Positions 3,764 to 36,475 of a DNA stretch of 64,000 bases are shown here, in pieces. Position 1 is the first letter of the stretch, and every line of letters starts with the position of its first letter. Position numbers and translations under genes: made by a program. The notes below the pieces were generated by a model. The model saw only the letters and a program-made list of their open reading frames with translations. It was not told where the DNA came from and ran no database searches. The DNA comes from a virus. The stretch covers positions 64,001 through 128,000 of the IMG/VR virus record IMGVR_UViG_3300045971_000895; one strand, 5' to 3'.

Positions 3764-4407
3764 AGGACCTCCGCGTCGTCACAGCCAGGGCGGTACTGCC
3801 CATCCAGTCCGTCGCTCCGGTGCGCGGGTTCTACCCGCCTTCCCTTCTCGTACAGGGCAAGAATCTCGCACAGACCACCGAGGTCGAGGTCAACGGAATC
3901 TTGGCGAAAGAGTTCATCATCCAGTCTGCCACCAATCTCATCGTGCGTATTCCTGAGACCCAGGTAGGGCAGGTGCTGACCTCGATCAAGGCTTACGCCC
4001 AGATCTCGCCGTCGGTCGACAAGGCAGCCTTGAACCTTGGTGTGATTCGTCCCATCAAGTTCATCTCCGGCATCGACCGGCTGGTTCAGGCGTGGCTGCT
4101 TCTCTTCTTCTCCTCTCCGGGGACCGACATCTTCTCGCCCAACAGTGGGGGCGGAGCCCGCAGCCTCATTGGCAAGACCACCGATGCGGGGCACCAGAGC
4201 GTTGCGGCTGATCTGGCGCTCTGCATCGACCGCACGAAGATGGAGCTGATGAAGCTCCAGGCCAACGCCCCCTACTTGCCGATGGAGGAGAGGCTCATGA
4301 GCAGCAGCCTCGTCGGCGTCAACTTCAACAGGGAGTCCTCGACTCTCTTCGCGGACGTCTCGCTCATCAGCATGGCCGGAACGGCCGCACAGCTCTCCTT
4401 GGGGTAA
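3760..4407 (+). CDS. hypothetical virion protein (215 aa)
   Basis: ATGA overlap with the upstream stop. GC3 bias. Confidence 0.45.
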   Translation: MKDLRVVTARAVLPIQSVAPVRGFYPPSLLVQGKNLAQTTEVEVNGILAKEFIIQSATNLIVRIPETQVGQVLTSIKAYAQISPSVDKAALNLGVIRPIKFISGIDRLVQAWLLLFFSSPGTDIFSPNSGGGARSLIGKTTDAGHQSVAADLALCIDRTKMELMKLQANAPYLPMEERLMSSSLVGVNFNRESSTLFADVSLISMAGTAAQLSLG

Positions 4408-4410
4408 CGC

Positions 4411-8910: not shown

Positions 8911-9190
8911 CCCGGGTGGCCATCCCCGTGTAGGCGTCGTACTCCGTCTTGCACTCTACGCAGCGCAGGAGACGGTGGGGGAGGGCGGAGCCGGCGATGA
9001 AGGGGCGAGAGGGATCGACAAAGGCCTCGTGAGAGGGGCCTCTACAGTTCGGGCAGGAGGCACGCTGGAAGACAGCCTCCTCCTTCGCGATGAGAGGAGT
9101 GAGGATGTCTTGGTGGACCTTGGCACCTGACGCGTCCGTCTCCTCGAGGATTCGCCGGATCTCTTCTGGGTCCATCGGCTTGAAGTTCAT
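8891..9190 (-). CDS. zinc-ribbon protein (99 aa), antisense to the late operon
   Basis: Strong GC3 bias on the minus strand. Two CxxC pairs (CPNC...CVEC). Embedded between + strand structural genes. Confidence 0.45.
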   Translation of the reverse strand: MNFKPMDPEEIRRILEETDASGAKVHQDILTPLIAKEEAVFQRASCPNCRGPSHEAFVDPSRPFIAGSALPHRLLRCVECKTEYDAYTGMATRVTSSRA

Positions 9191-9205
9191 GTTCCTTCCC
9201 CCGCT

Positions 9206-11524: not shown

Positions 11525-11527
11525 CCG

Positions 11528-14500
11528 ATGGCGACCTTCAACTCAGGAGGATTCGGAACCATCTCGCCCTTGGTGGAGAGGCCGACAGCTGTCGTAGTCG
11601 GTACGCCTTCCGTGGCTGTGCTGGGAGGGACGGTGCGCCTTGATGGCTCGGGCAGCATCAACCCCACAGCCTCCGACCTTACCTACTCCTGGGCCATCGT
11701 TGCGTCCCCGATCGGCTCAAAGACTCCCTACGAGCCCTTCAGACAGATCACGGAAGATTGGGCCTCCGTCTGGTTCTCTCCGGACCTCGTGGGCGAGTAC
11801 ATCATCGAGCTCACCGTCACCTCTGGCAACTTCGAGAGCAAGGCGCAGGCGCGAGTCTCGGTGCGCGCCATCCTCGTCCCGGACGGCCGAGCCATCGTCC
11901 CGGACGGCAAGTTCATCTGGAGCTACCTGCGCGACGTGTGGCAGCAGGTGGAAGACCGGCAGATCTTCGAAACGCTCTGGTCGGCCCTCATTCAGATCTG
12001 CGGTGCCGAGCTCCTGAAGCTCTACCAGTTCGACTTCAACAAGAGCATCAGGGACATCCAGGAGAAGATGCAGCGTCGGTGGCTGGCCTATGAGCCGCGC
12101 CTCGAGCTCGACCCGGCCGGCATGACTGTCTTCCTTGGGAACGAAGAGGCGGGGCAGGGCGGCTCGACGCAGCTGCTGGGCAGGGAGGCAAAGGCCGTCA
12201 TCTTCTCTTCCAACGAGCTCATCGTCGTCGAGGGGTCTGTTCTCGCAGATGTCCCTCCCTTCCTCGACATCCTCTACAGCCGCTCCTCCTCGAACGTTGG
12301 GGAGTACCGAACCATGGGGACGAACGCCGGGGCGACCGGCTACCGGATCAACGGGAGCATCCCCTCCGCAGTCGCTGACCGCGTCCCAACGACCTCTTCG
12401 GTGTTCTCCCCGCAGTTCCCGTTCCAGTCGAGGACATGGGCGCTACAAGCTCCGCCCGATTCCCAGTACGCGCTGAAGATGTCGATCTACCCGCCAACGG
12501 TGGACCAGCTTTCCGACATCTACAGCATCGCCGGGGCCATCGGGGACGTTCGCGTTGGGGACGTGGCGTACATCGCGACAGGCGTCAACGTCGGCTTCTA
12601 CCGCATCACCGCCTCCACCGGCATCTTCATCGAAGTGGACCGCGCTCCTCCGAGCTCTTCCCAGCCCACAGACCAGGTGATCATCTTCCGGCCGGTGGGC
12701 ATCAAGTTCGCCCCTCTCCCAAGCGCCTTGTCGGCAAGCTTTACCGTACCGCAGCTCGTAGGTTCTTCAGCCATCGCCAGCCTCGCCAAGGGCCGGCTCG
12801 TCACGATCGGCGGTCGGGCCTACCCTGTCCTGCGGTCGATGCTCGACATCCGACAGCCCGTTCCAACGTTCATCGTCACGACGGACGATGCCGAGGTCGT
12901 TACTGGAAGGTCGAACCTGAACTGGAGAGTGCCACACACTCTCGTGTCTCCTTCTGTCGACTTCGAGGCGGAGGGGGTGACCTCTGGTGACCTTCTTCTC
13001 TTCGACGTCAGGTTGGGGGGTAGGGGCGGCGTCGCTCAGTTCTCTGCGCAAGTCATCGGTGTGCATGGGCGCCGACTCGCCTTCGTACTGACGACCGAGG
13101 TGCTGGCCGCAGGAGAGGGCTACACCGTCCCAGACTCCGTCATCGCAGACACGCTCAACGCCATGGGCGTCGGCACCGTTAAGGTCTCTCCCGTCGGGGC
13201 GGTGAGCTTCACTGGGGATGCGGCGAACCTGTATTCCTTCGTGAAGAGCGGCCTCTTCGCGCAGCAGTTCTGGAACACCGAGATCGACCTGTCGACGGGG
13301 TTTGTCACTCCGGTAGGCCGCGTCTTTGTCTCCCCGAGAGCCGTCATCAGGAACAGCAAGATCCCTGTGGACGATACCGTCCTTTCCATTCCCGTTCTCC
13401 AGGAGTGGGTGGCGCAGCCGACGCTCGTCGAGAAGAACGGCAAGGTCTACCAGAAGAAGGGTAACGCCGAGTTCGAACTTCCACGGCGTCCCGTGATGCT
13501 GGTGGAAGGGAACGACTACCTCACCGACGGCACCACAGCCTTCGATGACACCGTCCCGTTCCGTACAGGAACTTCGACGCTAGAGGTGGAGGGCGCCGGC
13601 TTCCTCTCTCGGCAGGTGGCGCCTGGGGATAGGGTGTCTATCCCCACCGCCATCAGCCTGAACTTGCCCTACATCGTCGTGGAGGTCGTGTCCGAGGACA
13701 AGCTCCTGCTCTCGACACCGATTCCGGAGCTGCTTGTTCCAGTGACTACGGAGAGAGTCGTCGTTACGCGCAGGTCTGGCGGCAAGTACCTTCGACTCCT
13801 CCCCGGCGGGTTCACCGCGGCGAAGCCGGCGCCGGACCGCTTCTGGGCCGAGGTCAGCTACTTCGACAACTCGGATGCCATCGAATCGAACTTCGGCATC
13901 ATGGTGGGGCTTCGGAAGGAGGACCTCGACAAGATCACGACTCGAGTCTCCTACCGTCAGGCAGTGGCCGGACTGATGTTCGCCTACACCCGAGGCTCCA
14001 CCATCGAGAAGGTACGGCTCGGCGCCCAGATCCTTCTCGGCCTTCCCTTCGCAGAGCACCGCGGTGTTGTCCGGTCGATGGAGAGCAACTACCGTACGGA
14101 CGCGTCTGGTGTGTCCGTCCTCGGGAGACTCCTCATCGAAGACGTGGACGATGCCGGCGTCCCTTCCGGCATTCAGCGCGTCTACACCTACCCCATCGAC
14201 CACCAGTCCTCAGACCTCTCAGGGGTCGAGGTCAATCCTGCGACTGGGGTCACCTATGCTGTCGACGATGTCGTCGAAGCCTTCGCCCCGCTCGCGAAGG
14301 GCGTTGGGGTCAGCGACTACTTGACCGACCCGCTCAAGGGTCAGGCTTCCGGTATCTCGCAGCTTCAGAAGTTCCACTCATTCAGGCTGCGAGCCAACGA
14401 CAACCTCTTCAACATCGAAGAGATCACTCTCGTCTCTTCCTTCCTCCGCCGCATCACTCCCTCCTACGTGGCCTTTGTCCTTTTGGAGGTGACGCAGCTC

Positions 14501-15805
14501 GGAGACGACGTTTCTATCTCGGACTCCATTGGAATGGTGCTCCGTCGTGGCGGCATCGCCGGACTTGTCGACGACGTTGGAACAGGTCTCGGCACTCCCT
14601 TCATGTTCGACCAGAGAGACTTCTCGGGCCACAGTCTGGTTCGTTGGGACGATGGTGTATTCAAGCTGCGACGCTCTGGGAAGGACGCCATCGTTGTAGA
14701 CGTCGACCAGGTGACTGGTACCGTCAACTTCTCGGGAGACATCGTCTCCACGGTCATGCCGGGCGAGCTCATCAAGGTCGGCGACTACGTCATCTTCTCC
14801 GGTGGCCCAAATGCTGGGACCTACCCCATTACGGTAGTGACTGAGGGCGTGGGGGTGACGATCGATACGACGGGGAAGGCGCTTACGCCGGGCATCGACC
14901 AACCCTTCATCGTCGCCAGGAAGGTGAGCGAGGTCATCCGTTCTGGCTTCTGCTGGCGCCTCCGGAACGTAGATGCCAGCGGAGTCATGGGGACGACGCG
15001 GTACGGGGCAATCACCGCAGACCCCCACGGCTTCGTCATCGACGCGGGAGATGTCATCACCGACATCTCGAGCTCCCCTACACGAACCGCATCGTTCTCC
15101 GAGACAGGAAACATCCTGGACGGGGTCATGCCGGGGGATTGGCTCTTCACTTGCGGGGGCCGGCTCCTCATCACAGACGTGCAGAACATGGTCGTGACCG
15201 TCATCGGAGAGACAGGATTCAGCCCAGAAGGGAACGTCCCCTACACCATCATTCGCCCCAGCCTGCTCCCCTCCCCCTCGGAGAGCTCGTGGTCCATTAT
15301 CTCGGACGGCTCCTCGTACTCTTGCAATGACGACCTTCGGTTGATGGCCGACCCGGGGGACTACCTCGAGATCGTGTCTCCTGCCGGCTTCGCGGAGATC
15401 TTCGTCGCCGACGCGGGGTGGAACAATTACCTTCCAGTCCTTCCGGCGAATACCTACACCGTCCGGCTGAAGAAGAAGAACCGTCCTCAGGGACCCCTTG
15501 GCTTCGACTTCATCCTGAACGGCAACATCAACGACCAAGTGGACATCTACCTTCGGTCCCCCAACCTCATTGACTCCGACGCTACTGGGACGATCACCAT
15601 CCCGGCACATGAAGCGCTCAGCATGGGCGCGCAGATCGGGGACTTCATTCGCCTCTACGACATCACCCAGATCGACAACGGTTACGGCCTCGGGGTCTAC
15701 CCAATCGCCTCTATCACTGCCAGCGGAGGGGATGATGTTGTTGTACTCTCTGGTGGGATGGTCGACGGTGGGACGACCGCTTGGTCCCTTCTCAGGAGAC
15801 GATGA
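11528..15805 (+). CDS. giant virion/tail protein (1425 aa) with the same GD-x-V-x-I...G-x-Y-x-I modules
   Basis: Long ORF. Motif instances: VRVGDVAYIATGVNVGFYRITAS, MPGELIKVGDYVIFSGGPNAGTYPITVV, ADPGDYLEIVSPAGFAEIFV, IGDFIRLYDITQIDNGYGLGVYPIASI. Confidence 0.55.
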   Translation: MATFNSGGFGTISPLVERPTAVVVGTPSVAVLGGTVRLDGSGSINPTASDLTYSWAIVASPIGSKTPYEPFRQITEDWASVWFSPDLVGEYIIELTVTSGNFESKAQARVSVRAILVPDGRAIVPDGKFIWSYLRDVWQQVEDRQIFETLWSALIQICGAELLKLYQFDFNKSIRDIQEKMQRRWLAYEPRLELDPAGMTVFLGNEEAGQGGSTQLLGREAKAVIFSSNELIVVEGSVLADVPPFLDILYSRSSSNVGEYRTMGTNAGATGYRINGSIPSAVADRVPTTSSVFSPQFPFQSRTWALQAPPDSQYALKMSIYPPTVDQLSDIYSIAGAIGDVRVGDVAYIATGVNVGFYRITASTGIFIEVDRAPPSSSQPTDQVIIFRPVGIKFAPLPSALSASFTVPQLVGSSAIASLAKGRLVTIGGRAYPVLRSMLDIRQPVPTFIVTTDDAEVVTGRSNLNWRVPHTLVSPSVDFEAEGVTSGDLLLFDVRLGGRGGVAQFSAQVIGVHGRRLAFVLTTEVLAAGEGYTVPDSVIADTLNAMGVGTVKVSPVGAVSFTGDAANLYSFVKSGLFAQQFWNTEIDLSTGFVTPVGRVFVSPRAVIRNSKIPVDDTVLSIPVLQEWVAQPTLVEKNGKVYQKKGNAEFELPRRPVMLVEGNDYLTDGTTAFDDTVPFRTGTSTLEVEGAGFLSRQVAPGDRVSIPTAISLNLPYIVVEVVSEDKLLLSTPIPELLVPVTTERVVVTRRSGGKYLRLLPGGFTAAKPAPDRFWAEVSYFDNSDAIESNFGIMVGLRKEDLDKITTRVSYRQAVAGLMFAYTRGSTIEKVRLGAQILLGLPFAEHRGVVRSMESNYRTDASGVSVLGRLLIEDVDDAGVPSGIQRVYTYPIDHQSSDLSGVEVNPATGVTYAVDDVVEAFAPLAKGVGVSDYLTDPLKGQASGISQLQKFHSFRLRANDNLFNIEEITLVSSFLRRITPSYVAFVLLEVTQLGDDVSISDSIGMVLRRGGIAGLVDDVGTGLGTPFMFDQRDFSGHSLVRWDDGVFKLRRSGKDAIVVDVDQVTGTVNFSGDIVSTVMPGELIKVGDYVIFSGGPNAGTYPITVVTEGVGVTIDTTGKALTPGIDQPFIVARKVSEVIRSGFCWRLRNVDASGVMGTTRYGAITADPHGFVIDAGDVITDISSSPTRTASFSETGNILDGVMPGDWLFTCGGRLLITDVQNMVVTVIGETGFSPEGNVPYTIIRPSLLPSPSESSWSIISDGSSYSCNDDLRLMADPGDYLEIVSPAGFAEIFVADAGWNNYLPVLPANTYTVRLKKKNRPQGPLGFDFILNGNINDQVDIYLRSPNLIDSDATGTITIPAHEALSMGAQIGDFIRLYDITQIDNGYGLGVYPIASITASGGDDVVVLSGGMVDGGTTAWSLLRRR

Positions 15806-15807
15806 GC

Positions 15808-16446
15808 ATGAAGATCAGCGACGCAGTTCGAGTCAGCGACGCCGGTATTGTCCGGGCCGGCACCACTGAGCGCAGCTGGGGCTCGGAGAAGAGCGTTGTC
15901 GAGGTGAAGGGCTGGGTGAAGCTGGTCCTGCGTGAACGGGGCAAGAAGATCACCGAGCGCGAAGGGCACAACGTCTGGACCAACACCGGGCGCGAGTTCC
16001 TGACCCAGCGAATCAGCCTCGACCTCGCGTCTCCCTCGAGTACCATTCGGACGGATGCCGTCGCCTTCATCGGAGTCGGCATCGGGGCGAAGACAGAGGA
16101 GCCGGGCGTTCTCTCCTTGCAGACCCCCATCGCATACGACACCTCCCTCTTCCTGGCGGAGATCACCGGGGTGTCCTTCCCAGCCTATCCAGTTCGTACC
16201 ACTGTCGAGTACCAGCGGACCTTCGCCGAGACCGAGATCACCATCATTCCCGGAACTGTTCTTGTCTCAGAGCTTGGGCTCTTTACGAACGGCGACCCCG
16301 CCGGCACCCCCGCCAATGGTTTCGGGACCAGGCTCCGAGGGACTACCGACATGGGCGCCGTCGCTCCCGTGGCTTACAAGAGCTTTGAGCCAGTGGCCAA
16401 GACCGAGAACATGCAGCTCGAAATCTTCTGGCAGATCCGTTTCTAG
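15808..16446 (+). CDS. virion structural protein (about 212 aa)
   Basis: AGGAGA RBS. ATG at 15802 gives an ATGA overlap with the upstream stop; ATG at 15808 has better RBS spacing. GC3 bias. Confidence 0.45.
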   Translation: MKISDAVRVSDAGIVRAGTTERSWGSEKSVVEVKGWVKLVLRERGKKITEREGHNVWTNTGREFLTQRISLDLASPSSTIRTDAVAFIGVGIGAKTEEPGVLSLQTPIAYDTSLFLAEITGVSFPAYPVRTTVEYQRTFAETEITIIPGTVLVSELGLFTNGDPAGTPANGFGTRLRGTTDMGAVAPVAYKSFEPVAKTENMQLEIFWQIRF

Positions 16447-16455
16447 GAGTGAACC

Positions 16456-19400
16456 ATGTCGATGGACTTCTACAGGCGGCCGCAGCTTGCCGGTACCGCT
16501 CTCCGATTCCCTGACTACCCGATGCTGCGGGGGTCTGTGCATCGCCACGACCCAGACGGTGTGTCGTCTGCGCCATACTTCCCTCTCGCGACGGGTGGGG
16601 ACCTCACGCTCCTGGTTGACGGCACGCCCTTCACTGTCACGCTGACGGCGAATCCCTCGGCGCAGACGGTCGTCACGGCCATCAATGCCGTGATCTCCAG
16701 CAAGGGCTACGCTTACGACGAAGGGGGCGTGGTGCACGTCCGAACCCTGTCGAGGGTCGGCAGCGTCGAGGTGACGGGCACCCCGAGCGTGGCTCTTGCC
16801 CTCGGATTCGACCTGAGGCTGGGAGCACTGCGTACCTACGCTGGTGATGTGGCAGGCGCTGGAGAGGGCAGGATCAACAACCTCTTCGGCGCAGTGATGC
16901 CCGTCCCCGGCGAGAGTCTCAACTCTGAGAGCTTCGTTCGCGCACTGGCTCGCCTCTCAGCGAACCTGGACGTCCTGCTGTCGGACGGGAACAGGACGAC
17001 CCCGCAGTTCGTGGAGTGGGGGACGGTCACCTCCATCGATGACACCTCCGGCAACTACTCTCTCGTTTCGATCACACCGAACGCTCCATACGTCGGGCTC
17101 GGCGTCTCCAATGGCCTGGGCTCCTTGCGTGCAGGGGTCACTCTCGTCAAGGCCGCGATCGCTCCCTTCTTCTACCTGACCGCCGCTTCGGGCTATTACC
17201 CGTCCCCACACCAGGCGGTCGGTGTGGTGAAGGCCGCGTTCTTGTCCGAGCTCACTGGGGCCGCTCCCTACGCCAATGCCACCTCCGCAGCCGGTCCCGG
17301 GAATGTCTTCGGGCTCAGCTTGGTGAAGGCAGGCCCCTACCAGATCGATGAGATCCTCGGTGGTCGAGTCGTCTACCGCTCCGGCGGTTTCGGCGCCGCG
17401 CGAGTGGGCGACTACGTAGAGATCCGTCCCGACGCCAACACCACGAAGCTCCCGTGGGCCAACAACGGCATTCGCTGGAAGGTGGAGGCCGTCATCGGGA
17501 ACGGGCTGAGCCTGGCTCCGCTGTCGAAGGCAGAGCTCACCGATGCGGGACTTTCCGGGGCCAATGAGGTCCAACCGATCGTCAGCCTCAACGGCACGCG
17601 AGGCAACACCGAGAACTTCGGCGGGCTCTACCTCTGGACGGGCCCCACCATCGACGCTCCAAAGCTCGTAGTCTCACCCCCGATGGCTCCCTCCGCCATT
17701 GGCACTGTGGTGTGGGCAGCCGTTCCCTCCTCCCCACGTTCCCGAGCGCACGGCGAGGGGATGAACAACCCTGCCTTGAACATCCTCGCGCAAGGGTTCC
17801 CCCACAACGATGTCATCGTCACCAAGGGGACGATGTCGCTCACCGTGGGCACTCTTACGGTCTCCGGGATGGTGATCCGGAAGAACGGGTTCCGTAACGA
17901 CGTGAGTTCGACGCTCACAGGGCTGGGCAGCTACACCGGCTACATCATCCTCACAACCTCTGGTGCCGCGACTCTTGCGACATCCGCCGGCACTTTGCTG
18001 CCCGGCACCGGCATCCCTATCGCCAAGGTGGTCAGCGGCGCCATCACGCACGACCTACGCATCGCCGGAGAAGTCACGGAGCATGTGACCGTGGGCGGGG
18101 CCTACGCGATGCTCCCCGACATCCAGACGGCGATCTACTACTGCGCGCTGCGCGCTGTCGACGTGACGGAGATCGTCGTCACCTACGACCAAGCGAGCCC
18201 AGTCGGTGGATGGGTTACCGCGGGGTATCCCATCATGATTCGGGGGGAGAACCCTTCAATCTCTCTGGCGAGGAACGGGAGCAGTCCGCTCCTCACCTCG
18301 TCCGACTCCCAGAAGGTCATCCTCAAGAACCTCACCCTCCCGGTCTCCGACCCCAAGGTTGGGGAGCTCTTCGTCTCTCCCAGCAGCACCATCTTCGCCG
18401 TCGACTGCTTCGACTCGATCACGGGTGATCTCGTCTCGATGGCAAACCTCTCCACCGGAGTCGGTGGAGAGGTGGCCATCTACGGCGGACAGGGGACGCT
18501 CAGCCTCTTCGGAGCGACCAGCACTCGCGTCGGAGATGGGTCCATCACCGTGTACCTCGGCACCAACGCCACTACGGTGAGCCTCGGAGGCGCGAGTACC
18601 TCGACGGTGGTCCTCGGCACCCTGGCGGTGACGTTGTCGATCTCCGGAGCAAGCATCACGGTCACGGGAAGCGCCCAAGCGTCGACGCTCATCGGCACCA
18701 CCAAGGTCTCCACTCCGGTGGTCGAGGGCTATGCGGGAACGCTTAGCCTCTTCGGGACAACCTCCACGACCGTGGGCACCGGGTCCGCCAACACGTACGT
18801 GGGAGTCTCCAACGTTGGTGTCTACCTTGGGACCAACGCCACCTTGGTGGCCATTGGCGCGGTGTCTACGACGGTTTCCGGAACCTTGGCAGTGACCCAG
18901 TCGATCTCTTCTTCCTCGGCCACGGTCACCAACGCCAACGGCACCGTGAGTCTCGTGGACGGAAGCGCAATCCTCACTAGGGGGTTGCGCGTCGGAGCCG
19001 CGGGAGCGGCCCCAGCTACAGGAGAGGCGATCCTCTCTGCGAAGCTCACGGTCCCCGTGATCGAGAGCGGCTACGTGCCGGCGCAGAGCGTGAGCGGAGT
19101 GGTCATCGCGTTCACTGTCGAGTCTTTCCAGATGAGCCTGACCGATGTCGCCAAGTTCCGGACGGGGGACACTGTCACTGACACCCTTAACGCAGATGAC
19201 CATGGCGTGATCACCGGTATCAACTACTCCACCGGCTGGGTGACGACCGATCCTGGAGGGCTGTGGACGTCTTGGGAGACGGGGCACACCCTCACGGCCA
19301 ACCAAGCCACGATTGGGGTCTCCCCGCTGACTCTCCGGGCCAACACGGTGGGGGACGGGCCCGTCCGCGTGGCACCAAAGGATGGTCCGAAGACTGACAC

Positions 19401-20826
19401 CTCTCCGCTCTTCCGTGTCGCCAATGATGTGGCCGCGAGCGTGCCCGTCATGGACGTCACCAAGGACGGATTCACCCTCTACGAAAACGGCTCCCAGTAC
19501 ACGTCCATGGAGCTCATCGAACGGATCTGGAGAAGGATCGCCAGGTACGGGACGGTTGGGTCGGCCGGCGTCCAGTACTTCTGGCGCGGCAACATCTCGG
19601 CTCAGGTCATGGGGGGCTGCCCCAACATCACCAAGCTGACGGCCACGAAGCAGGTCTGGGACACCACCCTCAAGGCGGGTGCTCTCCTGCTCACGTTGCA
19701 GCCTTCCTCGAACTCGGACAACCTCGAGGCGATGCGGCACGCCACGGTCGAGTGGTACACGATGGACCGGGCCTGGGACCGCAGCACGTACCCGACCCAG
19801 TACAAGGACACCGGAGGGACGAACGGCACGGTCAGTGCGGTGCTTCTCAAGTCCTTCCACTCGATCTCAGATCGGCTCTTCGCGTCGCTCACCTCATCGG
19901 ATGCGGTGAACGCAACCGGCATCACGGCAACCATGTGCCTCCCCACCATGGGAGCGGGCACCGTACCGGCTGCCCGCATCACCATCTACAACGCCTTCGG
20001 GGGCTCCAGCACCTACTGGTTCGTCACCACCACGACGGACTCGACGCTCTACATGATCCCGGGCGGCGCCGGCTTGCCGACGCCACTCCCTGACGTCTAC
20101 CTGACTCCTGCTGCGCAGACCGTCTGGCAGAACGACGGAGAGACCGCGTTCCTCTCCATCGTGGGAGGGACTGGTCCATTCACTCTCTCCACCCCCACAG
20201 GTGGTGCGAATGGCCACTGGATCACGTCCAGCCCGACGGCGAGCAGGTCGGTATCGTGGCAGCCGACTGCGGCGTCCTTCCCCTCCGGCGCTACCGTCCA
20301 GGTGACCGACGCCAACGGCAAGACGGCGACCGCGACCATCACCGTCAATGACACCGCCGCAGGCGCGGACCCAGTAACGGACTGCTGCCTCTGTGTGGTG
20401 CCAGGCACTCCAATCCTCCTGCCCGACAATCGGGTGGTGGCGGTCGAGACCCTCAAGGTGGGAGACCAGGTCTGGACCAAGCCAGACTCCGGAGTCGACG
20501 TCTGGGGATCCTTCCCGATCAAGGCTGTGAACATCAACAAGCTTCCCATCGTTCGAGTGGAGCTCGAGGACGGGCGCATCCTTCGCGTCACCCCGAGCCA
20601 TCGCTTCTTCTCGGGTGGTGGTTGGCTCATGGCCTACGACCTCGAGCCCGGAGAGATCCTCGATGGCTCGCAGCCTGGGGTGGTGAAGCAGATCGTGGAT
20701 GAGAAGGTCACCGCCGTGACCGTGTCCATCACCGTGGCGGGGGCCAGGACCTACGTGTCCGATGGGCTCCTCTCGCACAACATCTCGAACCCGCACTGCC
20801 CCGGCGGCCTCAACGCGGGCTGCTAA
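16456..20826 (+). CDS. tail fibre/receptor-binding-like giant protein (1456 aa) with C-terminal Hint (intein-like) autoprocessing domain
   Basis: RBS GGAGTGA. Ser/Thr/Gly/Val-rich beta-structure and an internal 81-aa tandem repeat. The C-terminus begins with Cys (DCCLCVVPGTPILLPDN..), has a TxxH block (RVTPSH), and ends ...VSDGLLSHN-ISNPHCPGGLNAGC. Confidence 0.6.
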   Translation: MSMDFYRRPQLAGTALRFPDYPMLRGSVHRHDPDGVSSAPYFPLATGGDLTLLVDGTPFTVTLTANPSAQTVVTAINAVISSKGYAYDEGGVVHVRTLSRVGSVEVTGTPSVALALGFDLRLGALRTYAGDVAGAGEGRINNLFGAVMPVPGESLNSESFVRALARLSANLDVLLSDGNRTTPQFVEWGTVTSIDDTSGNYSLVSITPNAPYVGLGVSNGLGSLRAGVTLVKAAIAPFFYLTAASGYYPSPHQAVGVVKAAFLSELTGAAPYANATSAAGPGNVFGLSLVKAGPYQIDEILGGRVVYRSGGFGAARVGDYVEIRPDANTTKLPWANNGIRWKVEAVIGNGLSLAPLSKAELTDAGLSGANEVQPIVSLNGTRGNTENFGGLYLWTGPTIDAPKLVVSPPMAPSAIGTVVWAAVPSSPRSRAHGEGMNNPALNILAQGFPHNDVIVTKGTMSLTVGTLTVSGMVIRKNGFRNDVSSTLTGLGSYTGYIILTTSGAATLATSAGTLLPGTGIPIAKVVSGAITHDLRIAGEVTEHVTVGGAYAMLPDIQTAIYYCALRAVDVTEIVVTYDQASPVGGWVTAGYPIMIRGENPSISLARNGSSPLLTSSDSQKVILKNLTLPVSDPKVGELFVSPSSTIFAVDCFDSITGDLVSMANLSTGVGGEVAIYGGQGTLSLFGATSTRVGDGSITVYLGTNATTVSLGGASTSTVVLGTLAVTLSISGASITVTGSAQASTLIGTTKVSTPVVEGYAGTLSLFGTTSTTVGTGSANTYVGVSNVGVYLGTNATLVAIGAVSTTVSGTLAVTQSISSSSATVTNANGTVSLVDGSAILTRGLRVGAAGAAPATGEAILSAKLTVPVIESGYVPAQSVSGVVIAFTVESFQMSLTDVAKFRTGDTVTDTLNADDHGVITGINYSTGWVTTDPGGLWTSWETGHTLTANQATIGVSPLTLRANTVGDGPVRVAPKDGPKTDTSPLFRVANDVAASVPVMDVTKDGFTLYENGSQYTSMELIERIWRRIARYGTVGSAGVQYFWRGNISAQVMGGCPNITKLTATKQVWDTTLKAGALLLTLQPSSNSDNLEAMRHATVEWYTMDRAWDRSTYPTQYKDTGGTNGTVSAVLLKSFHSISDRLFASLTSSDAVNATGITATMCLPTMGAGTVPAARITIYNAFGGSSTYWFVTTTTDSTLYMIPGGAGLPTPLPDVYLTPAAQTVWQNDGETAFLSIVGGTGPFTLSTPTGGANGHWITSSPTASRSVSWQPTAASFPSGATVQVTDANGKTATATITVNDTAAGADPVTDCCLCVVPGTPILLPDNRVVAVETLKVGDQVWTKPDSGVDVWGSFPIKAVNINKLPIVRVELEDGRILRVTPSHRFFSGGGWLMAYDLEPGEILDGSQPGVVKQIVDEKVTAVTVSITVAGARTYVSDGLLSHNISNPHCPGGLNAGC
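18493..18960 (+). repeat. in-frame tandem repeat (two ~81-aa units: GTLSLFG[AT]TST.VG.GS...YLGTNAT.V..G..ST.V.GTLAVT.SIS) within the fibre gene
   Basis: Unit 1 spans 18493-18735 and unit 2 starts at 18736 (offset 243 nt). Unit 2 carries a short insertion. Confidence 0.5.
20383..20826 (+). other. Hint/intein-like domain at the C-terminus of the fibre protein
   Basis: N-terminal Cys block, TxxH block, and a terminal HN followed by a short 14-aa tail. Confidence 0.5.
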
Positions 20827-31204: not shown

Positions 31205-32074
31205 TCACCTCCGCTTGGTGCGTTGAGCCTGGAAGGCTTTGTAGGCCTCACAGGAGAATGCGAACCCACACTCTTCGCAGCCGTAGCCCGTCGTCGCCGG
31301 CGGCTCCTGCTGCCGGTTGTAGTGGTCGACGAGTACCCGGGCCTTGGATTCCATGCCACCCCAGATCGCGGGGTCGAACTCGACAGGGAAGTCGGCGAGG
31401 TTGGAGTCGTTCTTCGAGAGGTAGAGGAAGACGACGACGGGCCTGTTGAGGACCGCCGAGTAGACAGTCGCCTGCTGCTTGTGCTCTGGCTTGGGCCTGG
31501 TGAGCTTGGCGAAGTTGTTGCTGTTCATCGTCTTGTACTCGTGAACGACCCCCACCTCGTAGATGGGTGCGTTGGGGATGTCGTCGACGATCATGATGCA
31601 CTCGGCGTCGGCGGATCCCTCGATCATGAGCTCAGTTGCGAGCGGGTGGGAACCTTCCGTCATCCGGACTTCTGGGACGTACTGCGCGCCCCAGGCCCCA
31701 TCCAAGCCGTAGTTCTGGAACATGCCGTGGACGGCGTGGCCCAGGTCGAAGATGAGGAGCAGGCGGTTGTTGTGCTTCTCGTGCTCCTCCTTGCCCTCCA
31801 TCTGCCAGTAGATCTTGAGGAGGCAGGAGTTGATGATCTGCGAGGGGTGGAGCCCGGCGTGGCGTGGCGTCTTGAGGAGCCAGCCCTTCTTGTCGCACTT
31901 GTTGCAGGGCACCCACTTCCCCTCGTCAGGGATGGGCGGCCTGTTCTTCTTGCCCTGGAGGTAGCGGTAGAGCCGGTCCTTCACCTTCAAGCTCTGGAGG
32001 ATGAGGGACCGGATCTCTGGGCTGATCTGCACCCACTGCTCGATGGTGTGGAGCTGCACGACGGGGCGGCTCAT
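31205..32074 (-). CDS. PD-(D/E)XK exonuclease, Cas4/RecB-like, with an N-terminal Cys and a C-terminal CxxC...C cluster
   Basis: ATGA overlap start. Motifs IFDLGHAVHG, IVDDIP and YEVGVVHEYK. Cys at VPCNKCDKKGW and GYGCEECGFAFSC. Confidence 0.55.
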   Translation of the reverse strand: MSRPVVQLHTIEQWVQISPEIRSLILQSLKVKDRLYRYLQGKKNRPPIPDEGKWVPCNKCDKKGWLLKTPRHAGLHPSQIINSCLLKIYWQMEGKEEHEKHNNRLLLIFDLGHAVHGMFQNYGLDGAWGAQYVPEVRMTEGSHPLATELMIEGSADAECIMIVDDIPNAPIYEVGVVHEYKTMNSNNFAKLTRPKPEHKQQATVYSAVLNRPVVVFLYLSKNDSNLADFPVEFDPAIWGGMESKARVLVDHYNRQQEPPATTGYGCEECGFAFSCEAYKAFQAQRTKRR

Positions 32075-32415
32075 GACTTGCTCCCGCTCTGCATGTTGCG
32101 CAGCGAGAGGTAGTCGTACCAGCCGAGGACGGCCAGCTTGGTGTGCATGCCGGCGGCGCCCTGGAACTCGATCTGCATGACGGGAGACTCCCCGCCCTGG
32201 TGTGCCTCCTCCTGGATCTTCCGCCACTCGGCGAGCTTCAAGGAGTACGACTTGGCCGAGGTGGTCTTGCACTCGGCTCGGACATCGAGCGCGGCACGGA
32301 CGTCGCCCTTGGCGAACCCCGTTGCCCCGCTGCCCTTCTGTACGCGGCCGCCGAGATCCTTGGCGGTGCGACGCTCCTGGTTCTGGCTGCGTCGCTGATG
32401 GATAGTGCGGGCCAT
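32071..32415 (-). CDS. Hjc/restriction-endonuclease-fold (PD-(D/E)XK) nuclease, possible second junction resolvase
   Basis: Pattern ERRTAKDLGGRVQKGSG...KGDV...DVRAECKTTS resembles the archaeal Hjc-like core. Confidence 0.35.
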   Translation of the reverse strand: MARTIHQRRSQNQERRTAKDLGGRVQKGSGATGFAKGDVRAALDVRAECKTTSAKSYSLKLAEWRKIQEEAHQGGESPVMQIEFQGAAGMHTKLAVLGWYDYLSLRNMQSGSKS

Positions 32416-32422: not shown

Positions 32423-32495
32423 GGGAAGAGCTGGGCCGTGTGTCTCTGGAGGGTTAGTCCGACTCGGGTAGCGGTACGCTCACCCAGCTCTTCCC
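32423..32495. promoter_or_regulatory. long-range hairpin (13-bp perfect arms, ~47-nt loop) in an intergenic region
   Basis: GGGAAGAGCTGGG (32423-32435) pairs with CCCAGCTCTTCCC (32483-32495). Lies between the histone gene and the nuclease gene. Confidence 0.3.
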
Positions 32496-32502: not shown

Positions 32503-32688
32503 CTAGAGGTCCGACGGCCTGACCGTCTTGCGGTCGTTGCCCTTGGCGCGCGTGATGGCGTCCTCGAGCAGGCACTCGACTTCGGCGTTGATGGCGTCCA
32601 TGAGGGACCCGTCGCAGCGCATGTCGTCGCCGCCCTTCGCTCTGATGAACTCCTTGACCCGCGTCTCGATGACGATGTTGACAGGCAT
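32503..32688 (-). CDS. singlet histone-fold protein, DUF1931/HBb-like bacterial histone
   Basis: 61 aa. IVIETRVKEFIRAKGG...LMDAINAEVECLLEDAITRAKGNDRKTVRPSDL. The C-terminal AKxxxRKTV motif and its spacing match bacterial and archaeal histone folds. Confidence 0.55.
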   Translation of the reverse strand: MPVNIVIETRVKEFIRAKGGDDMRCDGSLMDAINAEVECLLEDAITRAKGNDRKTVRPSDL

Positions 32689-32692
32689 GGTG

Positions 32693-34048
32693 TTAGTCCT
32701 CTCCTTCGAACATGGTTGCGTAGTTGACGTTGATGTCTGCCCTCTGAAGGCAGACGGTGCGGATGTAGTTCATGTAGCTGTTCGGGTCGCCAGCCTCCGC
32801 TCTGGCGAGAACGTCCTCCTCCAACATCATGGCGAACTTGCCCTTGCTGTTCGCCTTCAGCAGCTCCTCGCCGTTCGGGCCGACGAGCGTGTGCCACGAG
32901 CCACTCACCTGCACGATGCCGTACGTCGCTCCCACCGTGGCGTAGTCGAGGTAGAAGTTGGCGTTGTTGACGGGGATGATGGGCTCGGAGGGGTGAGAGC
33001 GCTCCTTGAAGAACTGGTAGATGTACCGGCCCCTCTCCCCTTCGTGGATGCCGGCCTTACCCTTCTTGATCTCCCAGTTGACGTCCTTGCCCCAGACGTC
33101 CTTCGCCTGCTGCTGGCCGATGGCGCTGGGGAACATCATCTCCTTGCCGTGGGCGGCGCCGGAGGTGATGAACAGGTCCACGAACTTCGCGTGCTCGAGC
33201 GCGTTGCCGCCCGAGGACTTGTAGGCCTTGTTGGGGTTCTTGATGTCGTCCCGGATCTGGTTGATGCCGAGAACGCAGGTGTCTCGGGACTCTCCCTCCT
33301 CGGTCCGCATGGTGAGGAGGGCGTTCAGCTTGTGGAGGAACTGAGTGTTGGGCCCAGCCGTGCCGGCGTAGGTCTTCTCCCGCAGCGACTCCGACTCCGC
33401 CTCGGCGCCCGACATGATGGAGCCGAAGGAGTTGATGACGACCAGGTGGTACACCCTGCTCTCGATGCCGCGGAGGATGATGTCGTAGAGGTCCTCGACC
33501 GCGTAGCCGTGAGCCTCGTGGATCTCGCCGATGGAGTGCTTGAGCTGGGCCCGGTGCTCCTTCGTGAACGGAGGACGTCCGTTGGCGACGTTGGCACGGT
33601 CGAGCGTCTCGATGTCTCTATCGGAGAGCGCCACGGCGCAGCCCACCTTCTGAGCCTGCGTGCGGTCGGCCCTCATCTCGGTCTGGGCGAGGAGGACGTG
33701 GAGCTTCTTCCCCAGGATTCCCTGCAACTGGCGGATGGTCTGCCAGATGAGGTAGTCCTTGCCGGCGTTCTTGGGGCCGATGATCTGGGAGATGGCCCCA
33801 GCGGGCCACCCTCCTCCCAGCTTGATGTCGAGTGAGAGGATGCCGGTCGGCAGTCTCTTCGTGTAGTACGGCAGCGTGTAGTCGCTGGCGAGGCAGAGCT
33901 CGGCGCGACCGTCCATCTTGTCGCCCACGTACTGGAGCAGGTCCGCGGCACGGCTGGCCCTGCTTGCGGTTGGCTCCTTCTGCTTCGGTGCCTTGCCCTT
34001 TGCCTTGGGCGCAGCCTTCTCCTCAGCCGTCTTCTTCTTGGGAGGCAT
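32693..34048 (-). CDS. RecA/UvsX-family recombinase with Lys-rich N-terminal tail
   Basis: LPTGILSLDIKLGGGWPAGAISQIIGPKNAGKDYL matches the RecA core and Walker A. 451 aa. Confidence 0.7.
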   Translation of the reverse strand: MPPKKKTAEEKAAPKAKGKAPKQKEPTASRASRAADLLQYVGDKMDGRAELCLASDYTLPYYTKRLPTGILSLDIKLGGGWPAGAISQIIGPKNAGKDYLIWQTIRQLQGILGKKLHVLLAQTEMRADRTQAQKVGCAVALSDRDIETLDRANVANGRPPFTKEHRAQLKHSIGEIHEAHGYAVEDLYDIILRGIESRVYHLVVINSFGSIMSGAEAESESLREKTYAGTAGPNTQFLHKLNALLTMRTEEGESRDTCVLGINQIRDDIKNPNKAYKSSGGNALEHAKFVDLFITSGAAHGKEMMFPSAIGQQQAKDVWGKDVNWEIKKGKAGIHEGERGRYIYQFFKERSHPSEPIIPVNNANFYLDYATVGATYGIVQVSGSWHTLVGPNGEELLKANSKGKFAMMLEEDVLARAEAGDPNSYMNYIRTVCLQRADINVNYATMFEGED

Positions 34049-34071: not shown

Positions 34072-34233
34072 TTACGGCTGCTTCGGGACCTTCTCCCATG
34101 GCTCGGTGCCACAGACCCGACACTTCGGGATCTCCTGTCTGGGGTCCAGCGCCCTTCCACACTTGGGGCACTGCTGGTCCTTGCCCGCTGTCTTGGTCTT
34201 CTCTTCATCCAGCTCAACGCCTAGCTTCTCCAT
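34072..34233 (-). CDS. zinc-ribbon mini-protein (53 aa), not in the ORF track
   Basis: MEKLGVELDEEKTKTAGKDQQCPKCGRALDPRQEIPKCRVCGTEPWEKVPKQP. RBS GAGGTGA. The ATG follows the HU stop. Confidence 0.4.
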   Translation of the reverse strand: MEKLGVELDEEKTKTAGKDQQCPKCGRALDPRQEIPKCRVCGTEPWEKVPKQP

Positions 34234-34236: not shown

Positions 34237-34485
34237 TCACCTCAGGCTGCGGCTCTGTCGAAAGCGAATCTTACGACGGAGGGCTGACTTCTTGCCTTCC
34301 CCGAACAGCTCCTTCGGCTTCAGGTCGACCGGGTAGAAGGCACCAAAGCCAGGGAGCGTAACAGACTCCCCAGCCCTGATGGCCTCGATGATGCTGACGG
34401 GAAGCACCTCGATGACGGCAGCGACAATCCGCCTCGGGAGCTTCGTCCTCTTCCCGATGTCTGCGACCAGCTCTGAGCGAGTCAT
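34237..34485 (-). CDS. HU/IHF-family DNA-binding protein
   Basis: MTRSELVADIGKRTKLPRRIVAAVIEVL...VTLPGFGAFYPV matches the HU fold. Confidence 0.65.
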   Translation of the reverse strand: MTRSELVADIGKRTKLPRRIVAAVIEVLPVSIIEAIRAGESVTLPGFGAFYPVDLKPKELFGEGKKSALRRKIRFRQSRSLR

Positions 34486-34501: not shown

Positions 34502-36475
34502 TTACTTCGCTTCGGCCCACGAGTAGCCGCAGTGCGCGGACACCGGAAGGCCGACCGACAGTGGGGTGCCGAAGGGGTCCGACATGATCTCGTTGACCCT
34601 CTTGAGTGCGCGCCTCTCGATCTCCGGGTCGTCAGGGACCTCGAAGATGAGCTCGTCGTGGATCTGGAGGAGCATCTGGCAGTCGAGCTCCTTCAGCTCC
34701 CGGTCGTTCTCCGCCACGATCATGGAGTACTTGCAGGCCTCGGCAGCGGTGCCTTGAATCTCCGAGTTGACGCCCTGACGTTCAGCAGCAGCTCGGTCGC
34801 GCCGGCTCATGTTGTTGAGGTCACCGAAGCGGCGAGGACGACCCGTGATGGTGATGACTTGGCCGAACCTGGCCATGTCGTTCTTCACGTCCGCGATGTG
34901 GGTCTCCACGTCGGGATAGACGGCCAGCCACTTCTTGATGAGACCCCAGCCCTCTTCTTCAGTCACGAGCTTCTTGGTCTCTCTCGTGAGCTTGCGTGCC
35001 AGCTTGGGACCGCCGATGCCGTAGACGATGCCGAAGCCTGTGGACTTGTTGTTCTGGCGCTTGAGGAGCAGCTCGATGATCTCCTGCGTGTACTGGTCCT
35101 TCGGAGCCTTCTTGGCACGCACCACATCATCGTACGGGATGCCCTCGATCTCGGCCGTCGTGAGGCTGTGGATGTCCATGCCGCTGTTGATGGCGTCCTG
35201 CATCTTCTTCGACTTGCTGAAGTGCGCCAGCAGGCGCATCTCGAGCTGTTCGTAGTCGGCCACCAGGAGCTTCTTGTTGGCGCCGGGGATGAACGCCTCA
35301 CGGATCTTGAACTCATCCTCGTCGGGGCGAGGGATGTTCTGGAGGTTCGGCTCAGAAGAAGAGAGGCGACCGGTGACGGTGCCCGTCTGGTTCAGGGTGG
35401 TGTGGATGCGGCAGTACGGGTCGAGCCAGTTGGAGAGGCCCTCGACGTAGGTGCCGTAGATCTTGGCGATGCTCCGGTAGATGAGGAGCTTCTCTGCCCA
35501 CTCGCTCCCCTGGCCAGCCCACTCCTCGAGCGCCTCGGCGTCCGTGGAGGGCTGCTTGTTCCCGCTCTTCCCGCCCTTGGTGTACGAGACGATCGGAAGC
35601 TTGAGGGTATCGAAGAAGAGCTTCTGGAGCTGCTTCGGAGACTTCGGGTTGAAGACGCCGCCCACGAGATGGTTGAAGTCCCTCTCGATGGCGGTCATCC
35701 GCGTTTCCATCGGGCCCTTCAGGGACAGCAGGTAGCCCTTGTCCACCGTGATGCCGCGACGCTCCATCTTGTAGAGCACCTTCGCGAAGGGGACCTCGAC
35801 GCGGTAGTAGTAGTCCTTCAGCGAGCCCCACTGGAGGCTGGTGCGGTCCAGCAGCTCGTCGAAGTGGTGGCGCAGGATGGTGGAGTCGTAAGCATCAAGA
35901 CTCGCGTAGTCGATGGCTCGGTCGAAGGCATCCATGCCCTTGTGTCCCTCGACGACCTCCCGGATGATCTGCCCAATGGTCTTGCGGATCTCGCCCTTCT
36001 TCGCCTTGGGGATCTCGCCGAAGGTCTCCTCGAAGGTGGGGACGTGCCGGTTGAAGTGGTCGAACATGCACTCCTTGAGGCCGTGCCGTCCGACGTTGTT
36101 CTCGTTGTAGAGCCAGCTCTGGGTGAGGGTGCAGCGAAGATCCCCGGCGTTGACGATGTCGATGCCCGAGTTGGCGAGCATGTGCATGTCGAACTTCACG
36201 TTGGTGAGGTCGAAGTTGACCTCAGGGTTCTCGAGGATCGGCGCCTTGAAGAGGCCCAAGAACTTCCGGTCCAAGCAGATGCGAGTCTTGCCGTCCGAGA
36301 GCGACCAGATGATGACGTAGTCGCGGAGGCGGTCGAGGCCAGAGGTCTCGGTGTCGAGGCCCAGTCCCCCGTTCTCGCGGTGGGAGATGAGGTAGCGGTC
36401 GATCCACCGGCGCGCCTCATACTCGGTGTCGACGAAGTGAGGCTCAGGAATGGTGAGGTCGAAGGCGTGAGGCAT
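34502..36475 (-). CDS. family A DNA polymerase (3'-5' exo plus polymerase domains)
   Basis: Motif A VADYEQLEMRLLAHFS, motif B RAKKAPK..NNKSTGFGIVYGIG, motif C QIHDELIFEV. 657 aa. Confidence 0.8.
   Translation of the reverse strand: MPHAFDLTIPEPHFVDTEYEARRWIDRYLISHRENGGLGLDTETSGLDRLRDYVIIWSLSDGKTRICLDRKFLGLFKAPILENPEVNFDLTNVKFDMHMLANSGIDIVNAGDLRCTLTQSWLYNENNVGRHGLKECMFDHFNRHVPTFEETFGEIPKAKKGEIRKTIGQIIREVVEGHKGMDAFDRAIDYASLDAYDSTILRHHFDELLDRTSLQWGSLKDYYYRVEVPFAKVLYKMERRGITVDKGYLLSLKGPMETRMTAIERDFNHLVGGVFNPKSPKQLQKLFFDTLKLPIVSYTKGGKSGNKQPSTDAEALEEWAGQGSEWAEKLLIYRSIAKIYGTYVEGLSNWLDPYCRIHTTLNQTGTVTGRLSSSEPNLQNIPRPDEDEFKIREAFIPGANKKLLVADYEQLEMRLLAHFSKSKKMQDAINSGMDIHSLTTAEIEGIPYDDVVRAKKAPKDQYTQEIIELLLKRQNNKSTGFGIVYGIGGPKLARKLTRETKKLVTEEEGWGLIKKWLAVYPDVETHIADVKNDMARFGQVITITGRPRRFGDLNNMSRRDRAAAERQGVNSEIQGTAAEACKYSMIVAENDRELKELDCQMLLQIHDELIFEVPDDPEIERRALKRVNEIMSDPFGTPLSVGLPVSAHCGYSWAEAK

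Follow-up and report, generated by a model that had tools for sequence, protein, structure and literature searches.

A predicted histone of the face-to-face type encoded between the recombinase and resolvase genes of a phage of about 198 kb

The DNA analysed here, referred to as the window (64,000 nucleotides of IMG/VR virus record IMGVR_UViG_3300045971_000895), is part of a phage genome, as is evident from its baseplate, portal, UvsX-like recombinase and resolvase genes, as well as from a relative in IMG/VR. In particular, it encodes a baseplate wedge protein, a portal protein and a 2,103-aa protein related to multisubunit RNA polymerases, together with a dNMP kinase, a helicase, DnaB, DnaG and UDG. 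The gene that concerns us lies on the minus strand at 32503..32688, starts with ATG and encodes a 61-aa product, MPVNIVIETRVKEFIRAKGGDDMRCDGSLMDAINAEVECLLEDAITRAKGNDRKTVRPSDL, for which an alpha3-truncated histone fold of the face-to-face (FtF) type is predicted. The reading frame is exactly the one quoted in the initial annotation of this DNA, including its end, AKGNDRKTVRPSDL. An identical protein is found on a 198 kb contig, the genome being about 198 kb in size, and the automatic label given to the protein by the JGI pipeline is 'histone H3/H4'. When 12 kb around the histone gene were compared by megablast with 50,697 deposited phages, no match was obtained, and the DNA polymerase of the window (PolA) is at most 32% identical to that of any deposited phage.

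The same annotation had located the gene in a replication module, with a RecA-like gene beside it and an HU gene close by, and this is indeed where it sits. Namely, the gene directly upstream, to which it is translationally coupled, encodes a 451-aa UvsX/RecA-like recombinase with a Lys-rich N-terminal tail (32693..34048, minus strand, as are all genes of this group; PHROG 97, E 1e-24, with a faint Pfam RecA_N match). Further upstream follow a 53-aa zinc-ribbon protein (CPKC...CRVC; 34072..34233), whose position is conserved while its sequence is hypervariable, an 82-aa DNA-binding protein of the HU/IHF family (34237..34485; Pfam Bac_DNA_binding, PHROG 379 at E 5e-11 and a weak NCBIfam IHF/HU match), which is the second architectural protein of the module, and a 657-aa family-A DNA polymerase (34502..36475; Pfam DNA_pol_A), which anchors the conserved module. 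Directly downstream of the histone gene lies a 114-aa Holliday-junction resolvase (32071..32415; PHROG 2002, E 3.5e-27), followed by a 289-aa Cas4-like PD-(D/E)xK exonuclease (31205..32074; PHROGs 1706 and 1990, E 5e-19 and 3e-16). Exonuclease, recombinase and resolvase together make up a complete recombination gene set.

Is a reading frame of this size a genuine gene? In the window, with its GC content of 63%, real genes are recognisable by a GC content of 0.8-0.95 at third codon positions (GC3) and a low one at second positions (GC2). The histone frame has values of 0.58/0.39/0.95 at codon positions 1/2/3, the flanking genes follow the same pattern, and the frames that overlap it in other registers display the corresponding shadow pattern. 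What is more, direct reading of the minus strand reveals a strong Shine-Dalgarno sequence, GGAGAGG (32704-32698), 9 nt ahead of the histone ATG and within the 3'-terminal part of the UvsX-like gene; the TAA stop codon of the latter (32695-32693) comes 4 nt before that ATG. A spacing of 4-12 nt between the recombinase and histone genes is also found in four relatives (L003, L017, L018 and L019), and over 25 distinct relatives, with identities down to 39%, have an unbroken histone frame of 60-65 aa. Codon bias like that of the neighbours, the Shine-Dalgarno sequence and conservation in relatives thus confirm that 32503..32688 on the minus strand is a genuine gene, and they rule out a spurious frame.

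The 87-nt gap on the 3' side of the histone stop codon contains a hairpin (32423..32495, minus strand) with a predicted RNA folding energy of -38 kcal/mol (z -2.56). Its 13-bp perfect stem, GGGAAGAGCUGGG / CCCAGCUCUUCCC, is followed by UUU and then by the resolvase ATG, and the stem is retained in the relatives L003 and L006, where its sequence differs by a compensatory change and two wobble changes. The hairpin probably acts as a terminator or a 3' mRNA stabiliser, or else it occludes the resolvase start. A simple scan for terminators did not call it, although direct folding did find it, and a promoter scan gave no sigma-70-like promoter close to the histone gene.

Turning to the protein itself, a phmmer search of all PDB chains returned histones as its only significant matches, in particular HLp (9QT0, E 6e-7) and HTkC (9F2C, E 8e-7), with HBb at E ~0.02; in terms of score, the window protein reaches 33 bits against HLp and HTkC versus 19 against HBb. 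The same ranking is obtained with a profile of the phage subfamily in hhalign, which scores 96 (E 1e-20) against a set of FtF histones versus 78 (E 1e-16) against a set of HBb-type histones. The established family profiles respond more weakly. Namely, Pfam DUF1931 (PF09123) matches at 15.4 bits, below its gathering score of 21.8 and over positions 20-53 of the 138 in the profile, and 5 of 11 subfamily members match it at E<=0.01. The NCBIfam profile archaea_histone (NF043032) gives 13.1 bits against a cut-off of 50, Pfam PF00808 does not match the window protein but weakly matches 7 of the 11 relatives, and among the PHROGs nothing significant was found for the histone (best E 0.043).

An AlphaFold2 (AF2) model was built from a 92-sequence alignment of known alpha3 histones and has a pLDDT of 92.1, with helices at 8-19, 29-50 and 58-60 according to DSSP; since the alignment consists of alpha3 histones, the model does not count as evidence separate from the sequence. 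The predicted elements are alpha1 (8-19), L1 (20-28, including a GDD insert), alpha2 (29-50), L2 (51-57) and alpha3 (58-60). In other words, alpha2 comprises 22 residues in the model and is thereby shorter than in nucleosomal histones, and the helix that follows L2 is confined to 58-60, within the 3-4 residues of a truncated alpha3. The top nine Foldseek matches in the PDB are HTkC, HLp and HBb structures (TM 0.82-0.93, rmsd about 1 A), with eukaryotic H3/H4 ranking next, and superposition of the model on HTkC, HLp and HBb gives an rmsd of 0.9-1.3 A across 57-61 columns. Finally, the RxTxxxxD motif, or RD clamp, is present as R53, T55 and D60 and is invariant across the phage subfamily. Judged by sequence and model, the window protein is a true histone of the alpha3-truncated family (Schwab et al. 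2024), and the proposal of a phage-encoded singlet histone fold in the initial annotation is borne out by PDB matches at E ~1e-6, by significant profile matches and by a confident histone-fold model (pLDDT 92).

Within this family, FtF histones are defined by a toroidal homotetramer built from two dimers, and several positions are diagnostic of the type. The published FtF HMM lists K16, R48, N52, R54, T56 and D61 (PMC11390915); allowing for the 3-residue L1 insert of the phage protein, these are its K12, R47, N51, R53, T55 and D60. In HLp, the tetramer contacts are R49, N53 and R55, and the RD clamp is R55-D62 (PMC12701072). The three contact residues correspond to R47, N51 and R53 of the phage protein, which are correctly spaced and do not vary among the 11 subfamily members. 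In HTkC, the residue corresponding to R47 is R45; it binds the C-terminal carboxylate on the facing dimer, and an R45A mutant forms dimers (bioRxiv 10.64898/2025.12.06.692711). The position of the chain end matters in this respect. Namely, the window protein and all aligned sequences of the phage subfamily stop one residue past the clamp Asp, as HLp does, while the HBb chain continues for 5 residues beyond it; with the chain ending directly after alpha3, the terminal carboxylate could pair with the conserved Arg across the dimer-dimer interface. As for the surface predicted to face DNA, the basic alpha1 residues include an invariant K12 along with R10, R16 and K18, and the HLp DNA contacts S14, K15, K17, K21, G29 and T57 are kept as T9, R10, K12, R16, G27 and T55, K54 being a further retained contact residue. 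Counted over the 11 subfamily members, which are 39-82% identical, 14 residues are invariant: E8, R10, K12, G20, D22, R24, R47, A48, K49, N51, R53, K54, T55 and D60.

All sequence markers of the type, that is K12, R47, N51, the R53-T55-D60 motif and an end one residue past D60, are therefore found in the phage protein, which by these markers is a predicted FtF histone and, by analogy with its characterised relatives, probably forms the toroidal tetramer. With the FtF markers in place, the protein does not belong to the DUF1931 pseudodimers, the HBb type or the published 'phage histone' architecture. DUF1931 proper is a pseudodimer of about 140 aa with two histone folds per chain and without DNA-binding residues, whereas the phage protein has a single fold in 61 aa and stays below the gathering score. 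An HBb-type bacterial dimer is rejected because both the R and the N (the equivalents of R48 and N52) are present and the match to HBb is weaker. The 'phage histones' of Schwab et al. 2024 are rejected since the window protein ends at alpha3, with no C-terminal helical domain, and has the R53/T55/D60 motif. A nucleosomal archaeal histone (PF00808/NF043032) would have an alpha3 of about 10 residues rather than 3, and the curated cut-off is not reached. The label 'DUF1931/HBb-like' that the protein initially received thus stands as far as the histone fold goes, but neither DUF1931 nor the HBb type applies, HLp and HTkC being closest.

The module around the gene recurs in the order DnaB-DnaG-x-PolA-HU-Zn ribbon-UvsX-HISTONE-resolvase-Cas4 exonuclease. 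In the same slot between recombinase and resolvase, related histones occur in contigs of 196 kb (L003, 77% identical to the window histone), 201 kb (L017, 54%), 12 kb (L019, 52%), 7.5 kb (L020, 48%), 65 kb (L018, 45%) and 209 kb (L105, 41%), as well as in an IMG/VR relative (L006, 75%). Among distant relatives, the divergence of the histone is in step with that of its neighbours (PolA 54-66%, UvsX 50-55%). A search anchored on the recombinase gene added two further phages with a histone in the slot (L113 and L114), but it also uncovered four in which the slot is empty and the recombinase abuts the resolvase (L108, L109, L112 and L115), and in two others (L106 and L107) unrelated ORFs take the place of the histone. 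Since relatives lack the histone in this slot, it is not needed for replication or recombination as such. It is an accessory, optional gene of the module, and a reading as a core module gene, which synteny had suggested, was dropped in view of the empty and differently filled slots.

The phage subfamily carries a signature of its own, which consists of (I/V)E(S/T)R at the alpha1 cap, the L1 insert GG(D/E)D followed by an invariant Arg, and RAKxN(G/D)RKTV. Among the best 80 matches across 185,579 species genomes, none has the phage signature or the phage module, and the closest cellular sequences, from DPANN archaea, Peribacteria, Planctomycetota and Chloroflexota, reach about 50% identity. Other, independent phage lineages in IMG/VR carry alpha3 histones of different kinds. 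Namely, a 149 kb phage with a tail sheath (L007) has an FtF-like histone with a KKK tail, two others (L010 and L014) have FtF-like histones with basic tails, three rIIA/rIIB phages (L009, L011 and L012) have HBb-like histones, and in a very distant phage of 34% GC (L013) the histone gene lies between the PolA and UvsX-like genes. L007, L009, L011, L012 and L014 have their histone genes in unrelated neighbourhoods. The 50,697 deposited phages gave no match in tblastn at E<=1 with the window histone, P0124 or HLp as the query, which means that they hold no histone relative detectable by BLAST with these three queries. A neighbour-joining tree (59 columns, 200 bootstraps) gave no resolution, with all relevant supports below 0.2.

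In two respects, the phage histone stands out, from its gene neighbours in one case and from its basic cellular relatives in the other. First, it changes fast. Although estimates from 61 codons are noisy, its dN/dS is 0.35-0.80 among the window, L003 and L006, as compared with 0.08-0.20 for UvsX, PolA and Cas4, and 0.80-0.89 against the two closest relatives, as compared with 0.09-0.19 for the neighbouring genes. The extreme case is a phage (L110) whose flanking genes are 92-97% identical to those of the window, while the histone is only 54% identical. The histone dS of this pair is 0.40, within the 0.25-0.44 of the neighbours, dN is about 9 times higher, and the ratio is 0.89. This pattern fits accelerated protein change in place rather than a swap for a foreign histone allele, dS being like that of the neighbours; for the Zn-ribbon gene of the same phage, with a dS of 1.5 against the window, such a swap is plausible. 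The high dN/dS of the histone could also reflect relaxed constraint. Second, the protein is acidic. Its net charge of -2 and pI of 4.95 put it in the lowest 2.5% of 196 sampled singlet alpha3 histones (median charge +2, pI 8.85), and the phage subfamily as a whole spans -2 to +1. The acidic residues include E8 at the alpha1 cap and D21, D22 and D26 in the DNA-facing L1 loop. The view that a phage copy of a histone implies chromatinisation is not borne out, given an acidic protein and an optional, fast-evolving gene.

What, then, would such a protein do? The reading we consider probable, if only just, is that of a true FtF-kind, alpha3-truncated histone that bends or wraps DNA and has an optional, architectural role on the DNA of the phage. 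By analogy with HLp and HTkC, two chains would form a handshake dimer via their crossed alpha2 helices, and two dimers would join in a toroidal tetramer, with R47, N51 and R53 set against the C-terminal residues of the other dimer, including the free carboxylate of L61. A DNA-binding rim made of alpha1 (T9, R10, K12, R16) and the L1/L2 loops (R24, G27, K54, T55) would then bend or wrap about 50-60 bp of double-stranded DNA without sequence specificity. Since the histone gene is translationally coupled to the recombinase gene and has a hairpin behind it, the two proteins would be produced jointly, and the histone could in this way act, beside the phage HU protein, on phage DNA that is being replicated and recombined. 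We infer that the protein forms tetramers and binds DNA, as well as which DNA it targets and when it is expressed; the DNA-wrapping architectural function is likewise deduced, from the characterised relatives. That said, the gene is recurrent, optional and fast-evolving, and for this reason true histones appear to serve phages as accessory factors in the organisation of DNA, while a specialised or host-directed role may exist in addition or instead.

A host-directed role would have the histone compact or silence the host nucleoid, or act as a mimic, poison subunit or competitor of a host alpha3 histone, with an evolutionary arms race as the implied consequence. The patchy presence of this accessory gene within the clade speaks for such a role, as do a dN roughly 9-fold higher than in the neighbours, with dS being similar (dN/dS 0.8-0.9), the invariance of the dimer and tetramer interface residues despite this fast change, and a positive charge lower than in cellular relatives. 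FtF histones are, moreover, known from Planctomycetota, Myxococcota, Bdellovibrionota and CPR/DPANN lineages, and the histone of one Planctomycetales MAG (L030) has a GGxD-type L1 insert, as the phage copies do. However, the best cellular match is only about 50% identical, which argues against close mimicry of a known host protein, the dN/dS values come from 61 codons, and the gene sits among replication and recombination genes, coupled to the recombinase, rather than in a typical early host-takeover block. On balance, we deem a host-directed histone unlikely. We give somewhat less credence still to its sharpest form, a fast-evolving mimic of a host FtF histone, as well as to a related bold reading, in which the replicating phage genome is held in nucleosome-like particles. 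Such a mimic, having kept the dimer and tetramer interfaces and lost the net positive charge, could co-assemble with the host histone or displace it, and in this way take apart or re-programme the chromatin of the host, or keep host histones from silencing phage DNA as it enters. If this were true, a bacterial virus would provide a case of histone mimicry and of a chromatin arms race.

The position of the gene invites another explanation. Namely, the dimer or tetramer might be a dedicated partner of the recombinase or of the resolvase, for instance by shaping D-loops or branched DNA or by influencing filament formation, much as the eukaryotic histone-fold MHF1-MHF2 tetramer assists FANCM. In every histone-bearing lineage of the clade, the gene comes directly after the recombinase gene and before the resolvase gene, the former at a distance of 4-12 nt and with the Shine-Dalgarno sequence inside it, and even in the distant 34%-GC phage the histone gene lies between PolA and a UvsX-like gene. 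On the other hand, relatives with the same recombinase and resolvase manage without a histone, other phage lineages keep their alpha3 histones in unrelated neighbourhoods (the five named above), and the conserved residues are the generic FtF residues for DNA binding and tetramer formation. A recombination accessory is therefore rather improbable in our estimation, about on a par with the mimic.

Packaging of the histone with the genome in the capsid, after the manner of the Marseillevirus histone doublets, strikes us as very doubtful. The DNA in tailed-phage capsids is naked and at near-crystalline density, which counts against it, and so do the optional status of the gene in its clade and its place in a replication/recombination block on the strand opposite to that of the structural genes. 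What can be said in its favour is that the genome is large, at about 198 kb, and that giant-virus histones do package virion DNA (cited in PMC11390915). Least credible of all is a decaying remnant, that is a captured cellular histone that has become non-functional under relaxed constraint: dN/dS is near 1 in two comparisons and several relatives have lost the gene, but the frame is intact in the more than 25 distinct sequences referred to above, the 14 invariant positions are exactly the functional ones, the Shine-Dalgarno sequence is strong, GC3 is 0.95 and no frameshifted copies were seen.

What, then, is new? It was only in 2023-2025 that alpha3/FtF histones of bacteria and archaea came to be recognised. 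Both fold and family are already known; what appears to be new is a phage-borne, plain FtF-like subgroup, together with its signature, its fixed slot and its evolutionary behaviour. In the literature open to search, which covers few subscription journals so that a prior description is possible, phage histones come up in just two papers, in both of them as the C-terminally extended type, and histones are absent from a 2026 review on jumbo phages. The biology of alpha3/FtF histones is hard to study, most carriers being uncultured. The present subgroup has a fixed genomic address, the recombinase-resolvase slot in a clade of phages of about 200 kb, and it comes with natural controls in the form of sister phages with or without the histone in the same slot. 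It is also recognisable by a charge close to neutral and by acidic residues at the alpha1 cap and in the L1 insert. Together with at least 3 other sequence types of alpha3 histones in unrelated large phages, it shows that prokaryotic viruses have repeatedly acquired or kept true histones. Finally, a protein of 61 residues is small and easily expressed, and it would lend itself to experiments on how DNA wrapping depends on charge and on the L1 loop, and on whether a phage histone is used on the phage's own DNA or against the host.

How does the phage histone compare with known systems? Its closest match in sequence is HLp of Leptospira perolatii (PDB 9QT0/9QT1/9QT2; PMC12701072; E 6e-7, TM 0.85/0.92), which is likewise a singlet of about 60 aa with the arrangement alpha1-L1-alpha2-L2 plus a one-turn alpha3, and which wraps about 60 bp of DNA. 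The RD clamp (R53-D60 in the phage), the tetramer residues, the chain end and most DNA-contact residues are common to the two proteins, even though their identity is only 33-36%. Unlike HLp, the phage protein has a 3-residue acidic L1 insert and a Glu at the alpha1 cap where HLp has Ala, lacks a basic N-terminal tail, and carries a net charge of -2 as opposed to +2. It is moreover phage-borne, optional and fast-evolving, and its tetramer and DNA wrapping are predictions made here from sequence. The best structural match of the model, in turn, is HTkC of Thermococcus kodakarensis (PDB 9F2C; TM 0.88/0.93, rmsd 0.9 A), a protein that wraps and compacts DNA. Its L1 loop resembles that of the phage protein in length and in being acidic (DPEMR, as compared with GGDDMR in the phage), but the Asn common to the phage protein and HLp is a Glu in HTkC, whose net charge is +2 and whose gene is archaeal, chromosomal and highly expressed.

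More distant is HBb, or Bd0055, of Bdellovibrio (PDB 8FVX, 8CMP, 9EZZ; TM 0.82-0.87), which shares the alpha3-truncated fold and the RKT...D motif; it has Ser and Asp in place of the tetramerisation R and N, and it is a dimer that bends or coats DNA. Among viral proteins, the 'phage histones' of Schwab et al. 2024 (for example A0A2E7QIQ9; PMC11390915) also have an alpha3-type fold and come from tailed phages in metagenomes. They possess an extra C-terminal helical tetramerisation domain and no RxTxxxD motif, however, the window protein being the opposite on both counts. In BFVD there is no comparable singlet, the nearest viral structures having 91-139 aa and about 21% identity. The histone doublets of giant viruses (Marseilleviridae, Medusavirus) are virus-encoded histone folds as well, with a weak structural match to the phage model (TM 0.56-0.70); in contrast to the phage protein, they are homologues of eukaryote-type core histones with a long alpha3, and they form nucleosome-like particles as well as packaging virion DNA. 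A parallel in genomic setting is offered by the phage HU/IHF-type proteins, which are also small, phage-encoded architectural DNA binders of replication modules, although their fold is unrelated to that of histones. In the phage of the window, genes of both types, HU and histone, coexist in a single module.

The 87-nt gap between the stop codon of the histone gene and the start of the resolvase gene, read on the minus strand, contains a perfect 13-bp inverted repeat (GGGAAGAGCTGGG...CCCAGCTCTTCCC; window 32423-32495), which is followed on its 3' side by TTT and then by the ATG of the resolvase, with no Shine-Dalgarno sequence visible. The RNA folds at -38 kcal/mol (z -2.56), and the stem of the hairpin is retained in L003 and L006, two related phage loci with the same module, where it differs by one compensatory change and two wobble changes. 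The hairpin could act as a terminator, stabilise the 3' end of the mRNA or control translation of the resolvase.

In two relatives that have no histone gene between the UvsX-like recombinase and resolvase genes, this slot is occupied by unrelated small open reading frames, namely one at L106 5279-5527, with a very acidic product of 82 aa and a GC3 of 0.84, and one or more at L107 5234-5614. The site seems to be an accessory-gene hotspot. Between the HU and UvsX-like genes, in turn, lies a gene for a 53-aa zinc-ribbon protein (CPKC...CRVC; window 34072-34233, minus strand), whose position is conserved in all relatives, whereas its sequence is hypervariable, with 41-56% identity as compared with 87-97% for the flanking genes. 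A dS of 1.5 relative to L110, another locus with the same module, suggests that the gene has undergone allelic replacement. The UvsX-like recombinase itself has at its N-terminus a tail of about 26-30 residues that is rich in Lys, Ala and Pro (MPPKKKTAEEKAAPKAKGKAPKQKE...; window 33971-34048, minus strand). This tail lies outside the RecA core, diverges more rapidly than the remainder of the recombinase and occurs in relatives as well.

Elsewhere in the window, a single open reading frame of 2,103 aa (54313-60624, plus strand) is matched over its length by several PHROGs annotated as "RNA polymerase beta subunit". Since its matches in other phages include both genes annotated as rpoB and genes annotated as rpoC, its product seems to be a fused RNA polymerase of the multisubunit type; relatives with about 29% identity are found in Vibrio phages D69, D181 and D148 and in Salmonella phage Arash (181-187 kb). 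A block of very large proteins (716, 1,499, 772, 1,425 and 1,456 aa; window 1332-20826, plus strand), of which only one has a PHROG match (baseplate wedge), presumably consists of fibre proteins of the tail or baseplate, from a phage lineage that is otherwise undescribed.

The best-scoring matches in the exhaustive search (P0121-P0127, P0130 and P0134) are tandem doublets of the alpha3 histone fold, 117-207 aa long. Several of these (P0126, P0127 and P0134) start with a hydrophobic segment resembling a signal peptide, an odd feature in a protein that binds DNA. In two IMG/VR phages of about 190 kb with rIIA/rIIB, the frame of an HBb-like histone remains open further upstream, across a Cys-rich segment (CIPCPDGCGEPWCPDCQVHYADCDCPGPH; L009 7791-8168 and L011 7860-8168). 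These frames may encode a zinc finger fused to a histone, which would recall the ZZ histones; alternatively, an internal Met may be the true start. On a 102 kb IMG/VR contig binned as a giant-virus MAG (GVMAG-M-3300020182-33; L016 8001-8117), a frame that is open for about 190 codons is alpha3-histone-like in its C-terminal 60 or so residues and ends in ...RAKSNGRKTLKACDF.

Finally, a cellular alpha3 histone from a Planctomycetales MAG (L030 3843-4013) is the sole cellular sequence seen with an L1 insert like that of the phage subfamily, and it could hint at the lineage of the donor or host. The cellular protein resembles the phage subfamily in its L1 insert, GGKD, and differs from it in the alpha1 cap, which is basic (QSK).
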